A stretch of DNA of 64,000 nt from an uncultured Hyphomicrobiales bacterium (GCA_964344345.1 CAYFNC010000006.1:30894-94893), one strand, 5' to 3'. Counted from the first letter of the stretch, positions 16,185 through 23,328 are shown. Notes: generated from the letters alone by a model not told the origin. Made by a program: numbers and translations.

Positions 16185-17558
16185 TCAGCCCGCGGCCCCG
16201 GCGTTAATGGCGTCCATTTCGTCCTCGAAGAAGAATCGCTCCTCCCCGAAGGCCGGACGCAGGTCGTCGAGCCAGGTGGCGTCCGGATCGTACTTGGCGA
16301 AGAAGGGGCGCTGGACCCAGTCGGGGTTGCGGCCCTGGATGAACCGAAGCACGAAGACCTTTTCGCCCGCGACCTCGGTCACGCCCTGGATTTCCACCTT
16401 GCCGGGCGTGGCGCTCATGGACGGGCCGCGCGCGGTGCGCGACAGGCCGGATACCTTTGAGTACGCCTCGCGGTAGATGTCCCAAACCCGATGCAGCGGG
16501 ACCTCGAAATAGCGCGACGCGCCGGTGTCCCGCTCCACGAACATGTAGTAGGGGACGACGCCCAACTCCACCTCGGTCCGCCACTTGCGGGACCAGACCC
16601 CGGCGTCGTCGTTGATGTGGGCGAGCACCGGGCCCTGGCTGCGGATGACCGCGCCGGCGTCGCGCAGGCGGCGGATGGCGACCCGGGTGAGTTCGGGCTC
16701 GAGCTCCCGCCAATGATTGAGATGCGCCATGATGGCGACCTGTCGGCCGGTTTCCGCCAGACGCTCGAAAACGGACAGGAAGCGGTCCGCGTCCCGGTCG
16801 GTGACGAAGCGCTGGGGCCAGTAGGTCAACGCCTTGGTGCCCAGGCGGACGCTGCGGATGTGCTCCAGCCCCGGTTCGAACAGGGGGGCCAGATATTCCT
16901 CGAGATGGCGGGCTTGCATCACCGACGGGTCGCCACCGGTGAGCAATAGGTCGGTGACGTCGGTCTGGCCGCGCAGATAGCGCGCGAGGCGGGCGGAATC
17001 GTGGGCGGAGAAGCGCAGGTCGTCGTCGCCCGAGAACTGGGCCCAGCGGTAGCAGAAGGAGCAGTACGACTGGCAGGTCTGTCCACGTCCAGGGAAGAAC
17101 AGAACGGTTTCGCGGTACTTGTGCTGCGCCCCTTCCAGCGGCCGTCCGTCCAGCATGGGGACGTTAAGCGACTGCTGCCCGGCCGGGTGGGGGTTGAGCT
17201 TGTTGCGGATGTCCCAGGCGAGCGTCTGGATTTCGCCCTCGTCCGCGTCCCGGCGCAGAAGGTCGGCCATGGCGTCGAAATCGGCGGGATCGATCATGCC
17301 GGGCTGGGGGAAGACCAGTTGGTACATGGGGTCGTCGGGCGCGTTGTCCCAGTCGATCAACTCGTCCAGGAAATAGGCGTTGACCCGGAACGGCAGAACC
17401 TGCGCGACCACCCGCATGGCGAAGCGCAGGTCGGCGGGCATGCGGGACAGATGGGGAATGTCGTCGAAATCGCGGAGCGTGAAGGTTCTGTGGCTGGCGG
17501 GCGCAAATCGGGCGTAACCGGTCGTCCATTTCCGCGCGAGTTCAGCCACGGGCGTCAT
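16185..17558 (-). CDS. KamA-family (lysine 2,3-aminomutase-like) radical SAM protein
   Basis: AQHKYRETVLFFPGRGQTCQSYCSFCYRW (CxxxCxxC in KamA context), then LLLTGGDP and SVRLGTK blocks. Confidence 0.8.
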   Translation of the reverse strand: MTPVAELARKWTTGYARFAPASHRTFTLRDFDDIPHLSRMPADLRFAMRVVAQVLPFRVNAYFLDELIDWDNAPDDPMYQLVFPQPGMIDPADFDAMADLLRRDADEGEIQTLAWDIRNKLNPHPAGQQSLNVPMLDGRPLEGAQHKYRETVLFFPGRGQTCQSYCSFCYRWAQFSGDDDLRFSAHDSARLARYLRGQTDVTDLLLTGGDPSVMQARHLEEYLAPLFEPGLEHIRSVRLGTKALTYWPQRFVTDRDADRFLSVFERLAETGRQVAIMAHLNHWRELEPELTRVAIRRLRDAGAVIRSQGPVLAHINDDAGVWSRKWRTEVELGVVPYYMFVERDTGASRYFEVPLHRVWDIYREAYSKVSGLSRTARGPSMSATPGKVEIQGVTEVAGEKVFVLRFIQGRNPDWVQRPFFAKYDPDATWLDDLRPAFGEERFFFEDEMDAINAGAAG

Positions 17559-17988
17559 GCTTGACGATCCCTGATCCGTTTCACCAATGGCGCAGTTGGA
17601 CAGATGTTCACCCCGAACTCCCCCAATCTGCTTGATGCGGACCGCCTAGGTCTGATCCGGCGGCGCCCGTCTTTCTTGTCGGATCATTACGTGATCCTTT
17701 CGGACTCGTTTACGCACTTCGAACGAATGAATCAAGAAAAATCGAATCAGCGCTCTTGGCGGTTATGAGTTGCGATTTATTCACAGATTATAACAGGAAT
17801 GTAATATATTGGCGTTGTTTATGAAAATAACTGCCGATTTTTAACTATTATTCAAAAATTCCTAGAAACATACAGTTTGACTTGCAGGTGAGCGGCTATT
17901 TTTTCTCAAGCGATGAAAGACGCAGCCAAATTGATTGTCGAAGACAATCGGACGAATTCCCGGTCGACTCTTGCGGTGAAAGGGCGAA

Positions 17989-18018
17989 AAGGCTTGGCGG
18001 CGCCGGCCGCCAAGCCTT
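17989..18018 (-). terminator. hairpin terminator just downstream of tRNA-Lys
   Basis: 13-bp perfect stem AAGGCTTGGCGGC / GCCGCCAAGCCTT with a 4-nt loop, 8 nt after the tRNA 3' end. On the minus strand only two T residues follow the stem (TTCGCCC), though the stem's own terminal TT gives a run of four. Confidence 0.6.
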
Positions 18019-18025
18019 TCCTTAT

Positions 18026-18314
18026 TGGTGAGCCCGCCAGGACTCGAACCTGGGACCAACTGATTACGCACCACTTCGGCTTTCGCCGCCCCATCGGGTT
18101 CGTGGTCCGGACTATCCCTTCGCCGTATCCCCTGGAGGACGTAGGCGGGCGCCGTCTAGTCTCTACACCTTCCCGGGCTCGGCCGGGCTTGGCTCGGGAT
18201 CGCCATCAGCGTGGGCTGGAAGGGTTCCCCGAATTTGACGCCTGTTCACCCGCCGGTTTCCCGACGGGGCTCCCGTTTGAAAGTCAGTTGCTCTACCACC
18301 TGAGCTACGGGCCC
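18026..18314 (-). tRNA. tRNA-Lys(UUU) interrupted by a group I intron (exons 18280-18314 and 18026-18066)
   Basis: The joined exons give a 76-nt cloverleaf: GGGCCCG TA GCTC AGGTGGTA GAGC A ACTGA CTTTTAA TCAGT TGGTC CCAGG TTCGAGT CCTGG CGGGCTC A CCA. All stems pair, and the sequence is close to E. coli tRNA-Lys. Confidence 0.85.
18067..18279 (-). ncRNA. group I intron (IC3-like, Azoarcus/Agrobacterium tRNA-intron type), 213 nt
   Basis: Contains GTCAAATTCGG, GAGCCAAGC and GAAGGTGTAGAGACTAGACGGCGCCCGCCTA, which match the Azoarcus tRNA-Ile intron core as I recall it. The intron ends in G. The exon CUUU can pair with the internal GGAG, giving a U-G wobble at the 5' splice site. Confidence 0.85.
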
Positions 18315-18522
18315 GCGGTCGCCCGCGAGGGCAGGCCCTTAAATACACCGCGCGTTTCGCCAGATCAATTCCTGGCGGCTCTTCCGTTCGGCACAATCTT
18401 CCACGGCGGCAGAGAAAATTTTTCCCGGTAGGCAGCCGAAACGCCGGTATTTCCTGTCCCGTCCATGCGGGTCGAAAAAAGAAACGCATTATTTTCAATG
18501 TGTTGATTGTTCCTGGGAAAGT

Positions 18523-18537: not shown

Positions 18538-18580
18538 TCATTAGGCCGTGACGAAAATTCTTTTGGGGAAAGGCCAAGTC

Positions 18581-20443
18581 ATGGACAGTCTCGTCATCAA
18601 CGCCCAAGCCGCCGCCAACGACGCGAACGGGCAGAAGAAGAATGAAAACAGTCTTCCCGGCAACTTCGGCGGACTCGCGGCGACCTTCGACGAACTCGTC
18701 AAGAAGGTCACCACGTCGATCGAGGGCAACCTTGGCCGCATCGCCCCTAAATCCGACCTGACCAGCGTGTCCGAGGCGACCCAGCCCGCCGCGCCGAGGG
18801 AAGAGAACGACTATAGCCGCCGCGACGACGTCTCGCACGGCGACCGCGATGACCGCGGCTACGCCGACGACCGGGGCGACGACCGTCCCGACGCCGTCCG
18901 CGCCGACCGAGGCGACGACGGCGGTCGCGACATGAGCGACGACCGTCCCCAGGAAACCGCCGACAACCGCGTCGATAACCGCGATGACGGCGGACGGCGC
19001 GACGAGGCCCCCCGCGACAACGACCACGGCGCCGACCGCCAGGCCTCCGAGGACCATCCCCAGAATAACGAGAACGCTTCCGCCCGCCAGGACGGCGGCG
19101 AGCAGAATCCGCAGGCGACCGACCAGCAGGCCCGGCAGACCGCCGGCGCCGAGGGCGCGCAGACCCAGAACGCCGGCAACCAGGCGCTGGGCGCGGCCCA
19201 GCACGCCGAACAGGTGTTGTCCGGTTTGGTCGCCGGCGCCCAGGGCCAGCAGGCTCAGGCCCAGGTCGCGACCCAGGCCAGGGTCGAGGCCCATGGTCCC
19301 AAGATCGATGGCGCCCATCAGGGACCGAGCGCCGGGCTCGAGGCCGTCGCATCCAAGGCGGCCGAGACCGGCTCCGGCCCCAACCACAGCCTCGGCAAGA
19401 ACAACGGCCAGCACCTGGGACAGGGGCAGGCCAACCAGCAGGCCCAGGCCAACGCCCAGGGTCAGGCTCAGGGGCAGGCCCAGGGCCAGGCCGCGCAGGC
19501 CGCCGCCAATAACGACGCCGCCGCGCGCCAGGCCGCCGATCTGGCGGGCAAGTTGGCTCCGGGCGAGAAGCTCGCCGTCGAGGTCAACGTGGCCAACGAG
19601 GCCCAGACCCTGGTGTCCAAGCCGGGATCGGCCTTGTCGACCGCCAGCGCCGCCGCCGCCGAGGAAGGGCCGACCCTGCGTCAGCAGCAGGCCCAGAACA
19701 CGAACGCCCAGGCGGGCCTGAACGCGGCCGCGCAGCAGAACGCCCAGCAGGGCGCCCAGGCCATGGGCCAGGGCCAGGCCCAGCAGGGCGCGGCCCAGTC
19801 CGGCCAGAACCAGATCCTGGCGGCCCAGGCCGCCGACGGCAAGGCGCAGGCCGCTTCCGGCCCGCAGGGCCCGCAGACCATCCAGCAGCCCCAGGGCCTG
19901 GGCGGCGAGAGCGCCGGGCAGTCCAACGCCAACGCCACGTCGGAAACCGGCCAGACCCAGCAGTCGGCCGCCGCCCGCGCCGCGCAGCAGGCCCGTCCGG
20001 CCGCGCAGACCCAGCCCGTGGCCACTCAGGTCTCGGTCGAGATCACCAAGGCGCTCGCCGCCGGCAACGACAGGATCAACATCAAGCTCGATCCCGCGTC
20101 GCTGGGCCGCGTGGACGTCAACATGGAGGTCTCCCACGAGGGCAAGATCATGGCCGTGGTGACGGCGGACAGCAAGGACACCTTGGATCTGCTGCGCCGC
20201 GACGCCGGCGATCTGGCCAAGTCGCTGCAGGAAGCCGGGCTCGACCTGGACGCTGGCGACATGGAGTTCAACCTCCGCGAACAGACCGAACAGTTCGCCG
20301 AGCAGGGTAACGGCCAGGGCAACGGCGCGGGCGGCGAGGAAGCCGACAACAACCCGTTCCTGGACGAAGACATCGTCGATCCCTGGGCGGTGACGAACGA
20401 AGGCGGGATCATTTCCGACACCCGCGTCGACATCAAGGCCTAG
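18581..20443 (+). CDS. fliK: flagellar hook-length control protein FliK
   Basis: The C-terminal Flg_hook-type domain reads QVSVEITKALAAGNDRINIKLDPASLGRVDVNMEVSHEGKIMAVVTADSKDTLDLLRRD. The long central region is low-complexity and Q/A/G-rich. The gene sits upstream of flgD. Confidence 0.8.
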   Translation: MDSLVINAQAAANDANGQKKNENSLPGNFGGLAATFDELVKKVTTSIEGNLGRIAPKSDLTSVSEATQPAAPREENDYSRRDDVSHGDRDDRGYADDRGDDRPDAVRADRGDDGGRDMSDDRPQETADNRVDNRDDGGRRDEAPRDNDHGADRQASEDHPQNNENASARQDGGEQNPQATDQQARQTAGAEGAQTQNAGNQALGAAQHAEQVLSGLVAGAQGQQAQAQVATQARVEAHGPKIDGAHQGPSAGLEAVASKAAETGSGPNHSLGKNNGQHLGQGQANQQAQANAQGQAQGQAQGQAAQAAANNDAAARQAADLAGKLAPGEKLAVEVNVANEAQTLVSKPGSALSTASAAAAEEGPTLRQQQAQNTNAQAGLNAAAQQNAQQGAQAMGQGQAQQGAAQSGQNQILAAQAADGKAQAASGPQGPQTIQQPQGLGGESAGQSNANATSETGQTQQSAAARAAQQARPAAQTQPVATQVSVEITKALAAGNDRINIKLDPASLGRVDVNMEVSHEGKIMAVVTADSKDTLDLLRRDAGDLAKSLQEAGLDLDAGDMEFNLREQTEQFAEQGNGQGNGAGGEEADNNPFLDEDIVDPWAVTNEGGIISDTRVDIKA

Positions 20444-20481
20444 GCGAAAAAAGCGCCAGGCCGGGCTAGGAGACGAAAACG

Positions 20482-21186
20482 ATGCTGACGAACGACATCA
20501 CAGGCGTCATGGGCGCCCAGGCGGCGGAGACCGGAGACCCGGTCGCCCGCTCGGTCAGCGACAAGGAAAAGCTGGACGAGGAACTGAACCGGTTCATGAA
20601 CCTTCTGGTCACCCAGCTCAAGAACCAGGACCCCCTGGACCCCATGGACGCCAACGAATTCACCAACCAGTTGGTGCAGTTCGCGAGCGTCGAGCAGCAG
20701 ATCTACCAGAACGCCAACCTGGAAAAGCTGTTGAAGGTGCAGGAAAGCTCCCAGATCGCGACCATGGTCAACTACATCGGCACCGAGGTCGAGGTCGAAG
20801 GCGAGGTCCTGCCTCTGCAGGACGGCGCGGGCAAGTTCACGTACACGCTCTCGGAAAACGCCAAGCAGAACACCATCACCATCACCAACGCCGCGGGTCA
20901 TCAGGTCTACAACGGCGACGGCGAAACCGCGATGGGCATGCACACCTTCGAATGGGACGGCCTGGACAAGTACGGCATCCAGCTTCCCGACGGCGCCTAT
21001 ACGATCAAGTCCAGCGCCGTGGATCCCAGGGGCAACCTTCTTGACGTTTCCTACACCGTGTTCGGCCGGGTGACCGGCGGCGCGTCCGATGACGGCGAGG
21101 TCTCGCTGTTCATGGACGATGTCCAGTCGCCCATGAACGACGTCCTGTCGGTCAACGAGGCCAAAAAGGACACGACGACGGAGTAA
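20482..21186 (+). CDS. flgD: flagellar hook assembly/capping protein FlgD
   Basis: FMNLLVTQLKNQDPLDPMDANEFTNQLVQFASVEQQI is the FlgD signature. AGGAGA ribosome-binding site. Confidence 0.9.
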   Translation: MLTNDITGVMGAQAAETGDPVARSVSDKEKLDEELNRFMNLLVTQLKNQDPLDPMDANEFTNQLVQFASVEQQIYQNANLEKLLKVQESSQIATMVNYIGTEVEVEGEVLPLQDGAGKFTYTLSENAKQNTITITNAAGHQVYNGDGETAMGMHTFEWDGLDKYGIQLPDGAYTIKSSAVDPRGNLLDVSYTVFGRVTGGASDDGEVSLFMDDVQSPMNDVLSVNEAKKDTTTE

Positions 21187-21252
21187 TGGAGTTAACCAAG
21201 GCGGCCGAGAAAAAGCAGGCCGCGAGAGTAGACTAGAGTAAGGAGAAGAATC

Positions 21253-23328
21253 ATGAGTTTGTACGGTGCTTTGTTCTCGGGCGTTTCGGGCCTGACGTCG
21301 CAGAGTAGCGCCATGGGCGCCATCTCGGACAACATCACGAACGTCTCGACCGTGGGTTACAAGAACACGCAGGTGAACTTCCAGACCCTGGTCACCAAGC
21401 AGACGTCGTCAACGTTCTATTCCGCGGGCGGCGTGCAGTCCAAACCCCGCGGCGCCAACGACGTGCAGGGCCTGTTGCAGGCGACCACGTCGCAGACCGA
21501 CTTCAGCGTGTCGGGCGGCGGCTTCTTCGTGGTCAACGAGGCCAGCCAGCCCGGCATCAGCAACCAGTACCTGTACTCCCGCGCCGGCGAGTTCTTCCAG
21601 GACAACGCAGGCTTCCTGCGCAACACGTCGGGTTATTACCTGCAGGCGTGGCCGACGGATGCGTCCGGCAACGTGCGGGCCGCCAACACCAATCTCAGCG
21701 TGGCCAACCAGAACATCGTGTCCACCGACTATCTGGAAACGGTCAACCTGTCCCGCGTCGGCGGCACGGCGTCGTCCACCACGTCCATCGGCGTCGGCGC
21801 CAACCTCCCGGCCAGCGACACCACGGGCCAGACCCACCGGACCGACGTCCAGTTCTTCGACTCGCTCGGCAACGCCGGCAACGTCAGCTTCGTGTACACC
21901 AAGACGGGGCGCGACAACGTCTGGGATCTGGGCATCGATCCGCCCGCCGGCACCAGCGTGCTGACGGTGGAGGATTCCAGCGGCAATGCGACCCAGAGCG
22001 CCGGGCACGTGGAATTCACCGCCCGTCCCGCCGACGGCGCCACCATCGTGATCGACGGCATCACATACGAATTCGACAACACCGGCGCCGTGGGCGGCGG
22101 CAATACCGCGGTCACCGTCACGAACAACACCACGATCGCGCAGGACGTGGCGACCCTGGTCGCCGCGATCAAGGGCGCGGACACGGACTTCGCGGATTAC
22201 GGCGGGTACACCAACACCCGCGTTGCGGTCAGCTCCACCGACACCGCGACGGTCATCTTCCGCGAAGACGGAACCAAGGCGTTCTCCGTCAACCCGGCCG
22301 GTCTTCTTGACACCTCGGGCAATCCGGTGACCAAGCAGGAGACCACCTTCACGGTCCGGAACGTGGCGTCGGGTTATCGCGATTTCCTCCAGTTCAAGTT
22401 CCCGGGCGTTCCCGCCAACGGCGAGACCATGACCATCAACGGCACGGTCTACACCTTCAACAACGCCGAAGGCGCGGGCGATAACGACACCACCATCGCC
22501 ACCGGCGGCGGCGTCGCGGCCATGCTGGCCGACCTGGAATCCGCAATGGAGGCCAACGACTCCCTGTTCGCGGGCACCCGCGTCAGGGTCCGACAGGACT
22601 CCAACTCGGGCGCCGTCGACACCCTTGTGCTCGACGTTCTGCCAAGCGGCTCATACAACGTGGTCTTCTCGAACCCGTTCGCCAACAACCCGACCGACCC
22701 GTCCGGCGTGTTGACCTACGCCGACGGCGGAACCACGGCGATCGACAAGAGCTACGCCCTGGTCTTCGACTCCAAGGGCCTTCCGAGCGCCATCAACGTC
22801 TCGGAACTGGAAATCCTGGGCTTCACCAACGGTTCCGCCGACATGGACGACTCGACCACCAACGTGTCGCAGATCGGCCTCGATTTCGGCACCGTGGGCG
22901 AGGCCAACGGCATGACCCAGTTCGGCGCGGCCTACAGCCCGACGTTCATCACCCAGAACGGGTCTCGTTTCGGAACTTTCTCCGGCGTGTCGGTGAACAC
23001 ATCCGGCCTCGTGACGGCGCTGTTCGACAACGGCGAAACCCGGACGGTCTTCAAGATCCCGGTCGCCACCTTCGTCAGCCCGGCCCAGTTGGAAAACCGG
23101 AGCGGCAACGTGTGGAGCTCCACCGAGGCGTCGGGCGACTACACGCTGCGCGAACCGGACAACGGTCCCGCGGGCCAGGTGGTCCAGGCCGCCCTGGAAT
23201 CCTCCACGGTCGACATCGGTGAGGAATTCACCAACATGATCGTGGTCCAGCGGGCCTATTCCGCCAGCGCCAAGATCATCAGCACCGCCGACGAAATGTT
23301 GGAAGAGCTGATGAGGACCAAGCGTTAG
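21253..23328 (+). CDS. flgE: flagellar hook protein FlgE
   Basis: N-terminus MSLYGALFSGVSGLTSQSSAMGAISDNITNVSTVGYK. C-terminus FTNMIVVQRAYSASAKIISTADEMLEEL. Confidence 0.95.
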   Translation: MSLYGALFSGVSGLTSQSSAMGAISDNITNVSTVGYKNTQVNFQTLVTKQTSSTFYSAGGVQSKPRGANDVQGLLQATTSQTDFSVSGGGFFVVNEASQPGISNQYLYSRAGEFFQDNAGFLRNTSGYYLQAWPTDASGNVRAANTNLSVANQNIVSTDYLETVNLSRVGGTASSTTSIGVGANLPASDTTGQTHRTDVQFFDSLGNAGNVSFVYTKTGRDNVWDLGIDPPAGTSVLTVEDSSGNATQSAGHVEFTARPADGATIVIDGITYEFDNTGAVGGGNTAVTVTNNTTIAQDVATLVAAIKGADTDFADYGGYTNTRVAVSSTDTATVIFREDGTKAFSVNPAGLLDTSGNPVTKQETTFTVRNVASGYRDFLQFKFPGVPANGETMTINGTVYTFNNAEGAGDNDTTIATGGGVAAMLADLESAMEANDSLFAGTRVRVRQDSNSGAVDTLVLDVLPSGSYNVVFSNPFANNPTDPSGVLTYADGGTTAIDKSYALVFDSKGLPSAINVSELEILGFTNGSADMDDSTTNVSQIGLDFGTVGEANGMTQFGAAYSPTFITQNGSRFGTFSGVSVNTSGLVTALFDNGETRTVFKIPVATFVSPAQLENRSGNVWSSTEASGDYTLREPDNGPAGQVVQAALESSTVDIGEEFTNMIVVQRAYSASAKIISTADEMLEELMRTKR

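Follow-up and report, generated by a model that had tools for sequence, protein, structure and literature searches.

A functional-looking tRNA-Lys(UUU) gene split inside its anticodon by a small group I intron of the catalogued Lys.4Ug class in an uncultured Hyphomicrobiales bacterium

Layout of the interrupted gene and its neighbourhood

We analysed a 64-kb stretch of DNA from an uncultured Hyphomicrobiales bacterium, hereafter the window. On its minus strand, a tRNA-Lys(UUU) gene is interrupted between anticodon positions 35 and 36. The gene and its putative flanking signals are as follows:

18314-18280, minus strand: 5' exon of tRNA-Lys(UUU), 35 nt, GGGCCCGTAGCTCAGGTGGTAGAGCAACTGACTTT, tRNA positions 1-35
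18279-18067, minus strand: group I (IC3-type) intron, 213 nt, ORF-less, recognised by RF00028, a leave-one-out profile HMM and covariation
18066-18026, minus strand: 3' exon of tRNA-Lys(UUU), 41 nt, TAATCAGTTGGTCCCAGGTTCGAGTCCTGGCGGGCTCACCA, tRNA positions 36-76, CCA encoded
18340-18368, minus strand: possible sigma-70-type promoter, TTGATC-17 nt-TATTTA, found by eye, ending 25 nt upstream of position 1
17984-18019, minus strand: terminator-like hairpin (putative function), a 14-bp stem and then UUUU, beginning 6 nt past the CCA

The 5' exon ends in ...ACTGACTTT, its last base, U35, being the -1 nucleotide at the 5' splice site. The intron runs from CAAAC (more fully, CAAACGGGAG) to ...GTGCG (more fully, GTGGTGCG), and the 3' exon opens with TAATCAGT and closes with CACCA. 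Joining the exons gives the predicted spliced reading ...ACTGACTTTTAATCAGT... across the junction, and ARAGORN recognises in the joined sequence a 76-nt tRNA-Lys(ttt) with the anticodon loop CTTTTAA: a canonical cloverleaf with anticodon UUU, a 7-bp acceptor stem containing one G.U pair, discriminator A73 and an encoded CCA. The closest mature tRNAs, 93.4% identical, are the tRNA-Lys(UUU) genes of two Alphaproteobacteria MAGs. The coordinates, the strand and the 76-nt tRNA-Lys cloverleaf proposed in a first-pass annotation of this DNA are hence exact, as judged from the sequence and from ARAGORN on the joined exons; its further claim, that a 213-nt group I intron splits the anticodon at 35/36, is borne out by the joined exons, by covariation and by the leave-one-out HMM (both below). 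ARAGORN at default settings found no tRNA elsewhere in the 64-kb window.

The stem of the hairpin downstream of the gene was called on the plus strand, and its minus-strand reading and T run were read from the sequence. The FsrA sRNA model also matches this bidirectional 14-bp hairpin weakly at 17988-18019 (23 bits vs a gathering threshold of 80), an identity that we rejected as a chance match to the terminator hairpin. Upstream, the TTGATC-17-TATTTA element was not called by a consensus promoter scan, and its sequence hints only faintly that it might act as a promoter.

The product of the gene next to the tRNA (16185-17558, minus strand) is 457 aa long, contains a CxxxCxxC motif and has no Pfam match at E<=0.001. 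It scores 122 bits against the NCBIfam KamA (lysine 2,3-aminomutase) radical SAM model, well under the cut-off of 199, and by its sequence we regard it as a divergent aminomutase-like enzyme; the presence of a KamA-like gene beside a lysine tRNA is probably a coincidence. An identical protein is encoded on the ENA metagenome contig ERZ930070. The intergenic region between the start of this gene and the tRNA terminator (17600-17999) has 45% GC against a background of ~63%. On the opposite strand, a flagellar hook cluster, fliK-flgD-flgE (18548-23328, plus strand), starts 234 nt from the tRNA gene; its FliK ORF shows a strong Q/A/G bias, and over 18800-20000 its GC reaches 0.77 and its AT skew 0.4-0.6. 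Together with the 93.4% tRNA similarity, this cluster points to an alphaproteobacterial origin.

Same-site introns and the fold of the ribozyme

We scanned species-representative genomes for two core strings plus G+TAATC at an intron-like spacing, and obtained 35 loci. ARAGORN splice-site testing identified 33 of them, lying within L121-L154, as tRNA genes split at 35/36: 16 tRNA-Lys(UUU), 16 tRNA-Lys(CUU) and a single tRNA-Asn(GUU) (L128, Gemmatimonadaceae). The other two were left out as fortuitous GTAATC matches, L155 being a classical tRNA-Leu(UAA) 3Ug intron and L139 seemingly an fMet-type intron with an unplaced 5' exon. At all 33 same-site loci the -1 base is U, the omega base is G and the exons form an intact cloverleaf. 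Most hosts are Alphaproteobacteria (Rhodobacterales, Hyphomicrobiales/Mesorhizobium, Sphingomonadales, Skermanella and Neomegalonema), the rest being Gemmatimonadaceae, Acidobacteriota, an Anaerolineales MAG, a Gammaproteobacteria MAG and Owenweeksia. The intron closest to that of the window, at 87.9% identity, belongs to a Rhodobacterales MAG. A tblastn search with six window proteins found no synteny with loci L121-L155. A metagenome scan for an intron-less allele of the exact tRNA returned 0 matches, as did its intron-bearing control, the lineage being absent from the collection. In one of the genomes, Mesorhizobium sp. CAU 1741, a 66-nt tRNA-like element (L142:4440-4505, plus strand; Rfam, 37.7 bits) on which ARAGORN is silent precedes the intron-bearing tRNA-Lys(CUU) by ~130 nt.

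The window intron and the 33 same-site introns were brought together in a 34-sequence alignment (A1). To assign helices, we used homology to the curated supplementary alignment of Williams 2020; they were then verified on the window copy, where they are placed as follows:

18270-18283, minus strand: P1, CUUUC/GGGAG, in which C32, U33, U34, U35 and intron C+1 (18283-18279) pair with the guide at 18274-18270; loop AAAC
18249-18268, minus strand: P2 hairpin, 8 bp with a GAAA tetraloop; compensatory changes in 8/8 pairs
18237-18242, minus strand: 5' strand of P3, GGCGUC, partner of 18148-18153; 100% paired (n=34), compensatory in 4/6 pairs
18167-18232, minus strand: P4-P5-P5a-P6-P6a domain, with J3/4 AAA just upstream, J4/5 AA and P4 UCGGGG/UCCCGA
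18157-18163, minus strand: 5' strand of P7, G(A)GACUA with a bulged A, partner of 18109-18114; 100% paired, 2 pairs compensatory and 3 invariant
18148-18153, minus strand: 3' strand of P3, GGCGCC, from alignment covariation
18121-18147, minus strand: P8/P8a hairpin; P8 100% paired, compensatory in 3/4 pairs, P8a canonical in the window
18109-18114, minus strand: 3' strand of P7, UAGUCC, preceded by J8/7 AAGGGA
18070-18106, minus strand: three-way P9 domain with P9 ACCAC/GUGGU, P9a CCC-GAUG-GGG and P9b CGGC-GAAA-GCCG
18067, minus strand: omega-G, last base of the intron, preceded by UGC; G in 34/34 sequences (column G219)

In the window intron all 66 modelled pairs are canonical, through P1, P2, the P3/P7 pseudoknot, P4-P6, P8 and the P9 domain, and every core nucleotide that is invariant across the 34 sequences is present. 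P7 crosses P3, forming the pseudoknot with the guanosine-binding site. GAAA tetraloops cap both L2 and L9b, and the 213 nt leave no room for an ORF. The minimum free energy of the single sequence is no better than that of shuffled sequences (z = 0.10), a score that is uninformative for this GC-rich RNA; the centroid fold still recovers most helices.

Covariation across the alignment supports the same structure. The share of paired cells in A1 is 94.6%, and sliding the 3' partners by 1-3 columns lowers it to 33-47%; the former figure is somewhat favoured by construction, since the structure was taken from the window sequence and the published alignment. This does not apply to the compensatory counts: changes on both sides of the pair are found at 43 of the 66 pairs, and 0/500 column shuffles reach the observed values. 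P3, P4, P5, P6, P7 and P8 are each fully paired, with compensatory pairs in the core at P3 (4), P5 (2), P7 (2) and P8 (3); P4 and P6 are almost invariant, while P5, P5a and P6a covary. Outside the core, compensatory changes affect 4/5 pairs of P9 and 4/4 of P9b.

P1 consists of C32-G, U33-A, U34.G, U35.G and C+1-G, U35.G being the wobble at the splice site, and the -1 pair is U.G in 34/34 sequences. A terminal G and a P1 with a U-G wobble had been claimed at the outset, and both hold throughout the alignment. At the 3' end, the G at 18067 is the only boundary that gives back a 7-nt anticodon loop. Position 34 forms a C-G pair in 16 of the sequences, a U.G pair in another 16, G-C in one and U-A in one; on inspection of A1, C-G goes with CUU hosts, U.G with UUU and G-C with Asn GUU, so that the guide sequence tracks the anticodon of its host.

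Two elements are less standard. P10 is nearly absent from the window copy, where inspection finds a single possible G.U pair; several relatives ending in ...AUUGGGAG could make three P10 pairs, as seen in the alignment. Within P5, an internal loop at 18203-18223 on the minus strand (A1 columns 70-102) reads CCUUCC.../...GAUGG, with the consensus CCYUNCG/CGNUGG. The CCUUCC/GAUGG loop may be the alternative GNRA-receptor motif described for IC3 introns.

These two elements are what could make one suspect that a protein factor removes the intron or helps it to leave, the ribozyme fold being necessary but not sufficient in vivo. Some group I introns do rely on protein cofactors, P10 is nearly missing here, and the tetraloop-receptor region of P5 departs, on inspection, from the canonical 11-nt motif. 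We nonetheless regard such dependence as highly unlikely: the intron is 213 nt long and ORF-less, its core is complete and both GAAA tetraloops are in place, and the genes adjoining it, the KamA-family radical SAM gene and fliK, offer no candidate cofactor. Moreover, efficient self-splicing in vitro is a property of related small IC3 tRNA introns, those of Azoarcus and Anabaena.

Place among known classes and behaviour of annotation tools

A survey of tRNA introns in ~80,000 bacterial genomes catalogued a class named Lys.4Ug (Williams 2020, bioRxiv 10.1101/2020.01.27.920355), and its seed alignment holds Mpe6.Lys.4Ug (CUUU/...g), along with Lys.3Ug and Lys.2Ug. The Mpe6 seed is base for base the intron at our locus L135, from Neomegalonema (formerly Meganema) perideroedes DSM 15528. 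The window intron splits the loop as CUUU/intron...g/UAA, the arrangement that defines Lys.4Ug, and is 78% identical to Mpe6. Judging from its sequence, we assign it to this class as a new example; neither the host nor the insertion site is new. The first-pass annotation had suspected that a tRNA-Lys host might be novel, a suspicion that falls because Lys.4Ug is already among the classes of Williams 2020. The two introns agree in host tRNA, insertion point, U-1, omega-G, guide GGGAG, helix set and a three-way P9 domain with CGGCGAAAGCCG. They differ in length (232 nt for Mpe6 vs 213 nt in the window, where P6a and P9a are shorter) and in P7, where the window has ACUA/UAGU and Mpe6 GCCA/UGGU, a compensatory change; they also come from different organisms and genomic contexts.

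More distant comparisons place the intron within IC3, the subgroup to which GISSD assigns the four classical tRNA introns according to Williams 2020 (bioRxiv 10.1101/2020.01.27.920355). The window intron shows core homology to the introns of Azoarcus tRNA-Ile (68% global identity to the seed), cyanobacterial tRNA-Leu (77%) and Agrobacterium-type tRNA-Arg (70-78%), and at 213 nt, ORF-less and inside a 7-nt anticodon loop it fits the size (about 200-250 nt) and site of the class. The core strings GTCAAATTCGG, GAGCCAAGC and GAAGGTGTAGAGACTAGACGGCGCCCGCCTA, on which the first-pass annotation had based the label 'Azoarcus-like', are all in the intron; the first two and the initial 22 nt of the third are shared with the Azoarcus-type Ile seed, the rest differing at 2 positions. 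With the Azoarcus-type tRNA-Ile(CAU) intron (Ile2.5Ug) the window copy has in common J3/4 AAA, P4, P6, GAAGGUGUAGAGACUAGACGGC, P7 UAGUCC and the GAAA loop of P2. The label is therefore apt for the IC3 core strings but not for the whole molecule, which is only 68% identical overall and whose P9 domain is built like those of the Leu and Arg introns: where the window copy has the P9/P9a/P9b junction with its GAAA loop, Azoarcus shows one P9 hairpin. The Azoarcus intron is also inserted after position 36 instead of 35, has the guide GUG for CAU, and carries in P5 the canonical 11-nt GAAA receptor CCUAAG/UAUGG where the window has CCUUCC/GAUGG.

The three-way P9, with a ...GCGAAAGC... hairpin, is found in the cyanobacterial and plastid tRNA-Leu(UAA) introns (Leu.3Ug) and in the alphaproteobacterial tRNA-Arg introns (Arg.5Ug and Arg.3Ug, the latter 77-78% identical to the window intron); all of these differ from the window intron in host tRNA, in guide and in being inserted after 34 or 36. 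Lys.3Ug and Lys.2Ug (seeds Mle24 and Dba165) are likewise group I introns in the anticodon loops of tRNA-Lys, at other insertion points. Their 59-61% identity to the window intron and their core variants, such as UCAGAGACUA, set them apart as other intron lineages; they also bear extra P7.1/7.2-like inserts. The 22-49 nt 'group I introns' claimed in 2017 in cyanobacterial tRNA-Lys(CTT) (PMC5733544) are too short for group I ribozymes, and for this reason we rejected them as prior art. A targeted, non-exhaustive full-text literature search found no experimental splicing data for tRNA-Lys group I introns, nor any expression data for the Lys.4Ug class.

Standard tools handle the locus poorly. The Rfam group I model, RF00028 (Intron_gpI), matches 18290-18099 on the minus strand over its full length (1-253) with 34.4 bits; its E-value is 5.4e-7 when the local region is searched and 4.6e-5 with the 64-kb window as a whole, where it is the sole Rfam match at E<=0.01. 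At gathering thresholds (50 for RF00028), Rfam gives zero matches across the 64 kb. The covariance-model search proposed in the first-pass annotation is thus significant and does not refute the intron, yet its score falls below gathering. This is a property of the whole class: RF00028 stays under gathering in 15/18 homologous loci, and the remaining three reach 50.6-53.6 bits. The Rfam group I seed contains no bacterial introns, according to Williams 2020 (bioRxiv 10.1101/2020.01.27.920355). When a profile HMM is trained on the 33 other loci, with the window sequence excluded (alignment A2; nhmmer), it matches the window exactly once, at full length, at 18285-18061 on the minus strand (200.9 bits, E 4.9e-61). 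Intron-aware tRNA prediction, also proposed at the outset and run here with ARAGORN, does detect a gene but miscalls it as a tRNA-SeC with a 191-nt intron at 38/39, and at the homologous loci ARAGORN finds 0/18 interrupted tRNA genes. Owing to the sub-gathering Rfam score and the SeC miscall, these off-the-shelf checks are ambiguous.

With default settings, the only tRNA that ARAGORN reports in the window is a tRNA-Thr(cgt) at 18026-18101 on the minus strand, and one could argue that this is the real gene, with an unrelated group I-like sequence upstream of it. We give this reading practically no credence. On inspection, the call reuses the 3' exon of tRNA-Lys and takes its 5' half from the P9a/P9b hairpins, GAACCCG mimicking the 5' strand of an acceptor; mismatches are present in the acceptor stem (A.C) and in the anticodon stem (G.G), and the borrowed segment is conserved, with covariation, as P9 of the intron. 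With two stems mismatched the call does not qualify as a tRNA-Thr, and since it recurs in none of the 18 homologous loci it is best seen as a chance ghost. ARAGORN 'ghost exons' of this kind were described by Williams 2020 (bioRxiv 10.1101/2020.01.27.920355).

The tRNA-Lys(UUU) gene could instead be a decaying or silent copy, its intron no longer splicing and an intact tRNA-Lys(UUU) elsewhere serving translation. The visible part of the genome is 64 kb and holds no other tRNA, the P10 helix is weak, the putative promoter escaped the scan and the Rfam score lies under gathering, all of which would suit a relic. Still, 0/66 pairs are broken, all alignment-invariant core nucleotides are in place, the cloverleaf made by the exons is perfect and carries CCA, and a terminator-like hairpin lies 3' of the gene. 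Because no pair is broken, no core nucleotide is substituted and the low Rfam score, common to 15/18 homologous loci, is a trait of the class, we find a silent relic quite unlikely.

Default ARAGORN, its intron mode and Rfam at gathering all fail on this gene, so a tRNA-Lys will seem to be missing: automatic annotation would log a real tRNA-Thr at 18026-18101 and overlook the tRNA-Lys. Genomes with a Lys.4Ug-type intron will appear one tRNA-Lys gene short, distorting tRNA-complement and completeness estimates.

Proposed splicing and movement between hosts

Taken together, the locus is very probably what it looks like, a functional-looking tRNA-Lys(UUU) gene split at U35/U36 by a small ORF-less IC3-type ribozyme of class Lys.4Ug. 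Its boundaries, all of its helices, their covariation across 34 genes and the covariation of guide and anticodon are directly observed; from established group I chemistry, we infer that the gene would be transcribed, spliced and used in vivo. Transcription would yield a single precursor in which the intron takes the canonical P1-P9 architecture. C32-U35 and the first intron base would pair with the guide GGGAG to form P1, placing U35.G at the cleavage site, and a free guanosine held in the P7 pocket would attack after U35. The terminal G (18067) would next occupy the pocket, and the 3'-OH of U35 would attack the bond before U36, ligating the exons into the loop CUUUUAA and releasing the intron. 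With P10 being weak, we assume that the anticodon stem keeps the exons together. RNase P and modification enzymes would then complete the tRNA.

Introns with UUU and CUU hosts are interleaved in an NJ tree built without bootstrapping, and between phyla the introns can be as similar as their host tRNAs, or more so (for example, 85% intron identity to an Acidobacteriota copy). Interleaving and cross-phylum identity suggest, at the sequence level, repeated host switching. A switch between Lys-UUU and Lys-CUU would be cost-free, as the guide GGGAG tolerates G.U and can pair with CUUU as well as CUCU. Reverse splicing or recombination at loops reading CUNU|UAA may be the route by which the intron moves.

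Viral contigs were scanned with the same pattern as the genomes; an earlier pattern (GCGAAAGYYG..GTAATC) had been discarded for its loose 3' end, which left it swamped by chance matches. On a 543-kb contig catalogued as viral (IMGVR_UViG_3300024239_000011), a 194-nt intron belonging to the class of the window intron interrupts a tRNA-Lys(UUU) at 35/36 (L158:7243-7520); it is closest to the Owenweeksia copy, at 79% identity. A second, 103-kb viral contig carries a tRNA-Leu(UAA) 3Ug intron within a 10-tRNA array (L157:3497-3678). Phage-borne tRNA genes could serve as a vehicle for spread between phyla.

A broader picture can be drawn only tentatively, and we hold it for possible rather than probable: a ribozyme lineage that moves among Lys-UUU, Lys-CUU and Asn-GUU genes, across at least five phyla and onto a 543-kb viral-catalogue contig, and that here occupies the sole tRNA-Lys(UUU) gene. 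The value of the locus lies chiefly in its warning for annotation and in the single data point that it adds on intron host switching. The interleaved Lys-UUU, Lys-CUU and Asn-GUU hosts, together with the viral-catalogue copy, make a small and tractable case of an ORF-less intron changing its host gene. If this were indeed the only tRNA-Lys(UUU) gene of the organism, decoding of AAA and AAG would depend on the activity of a ribozyme.
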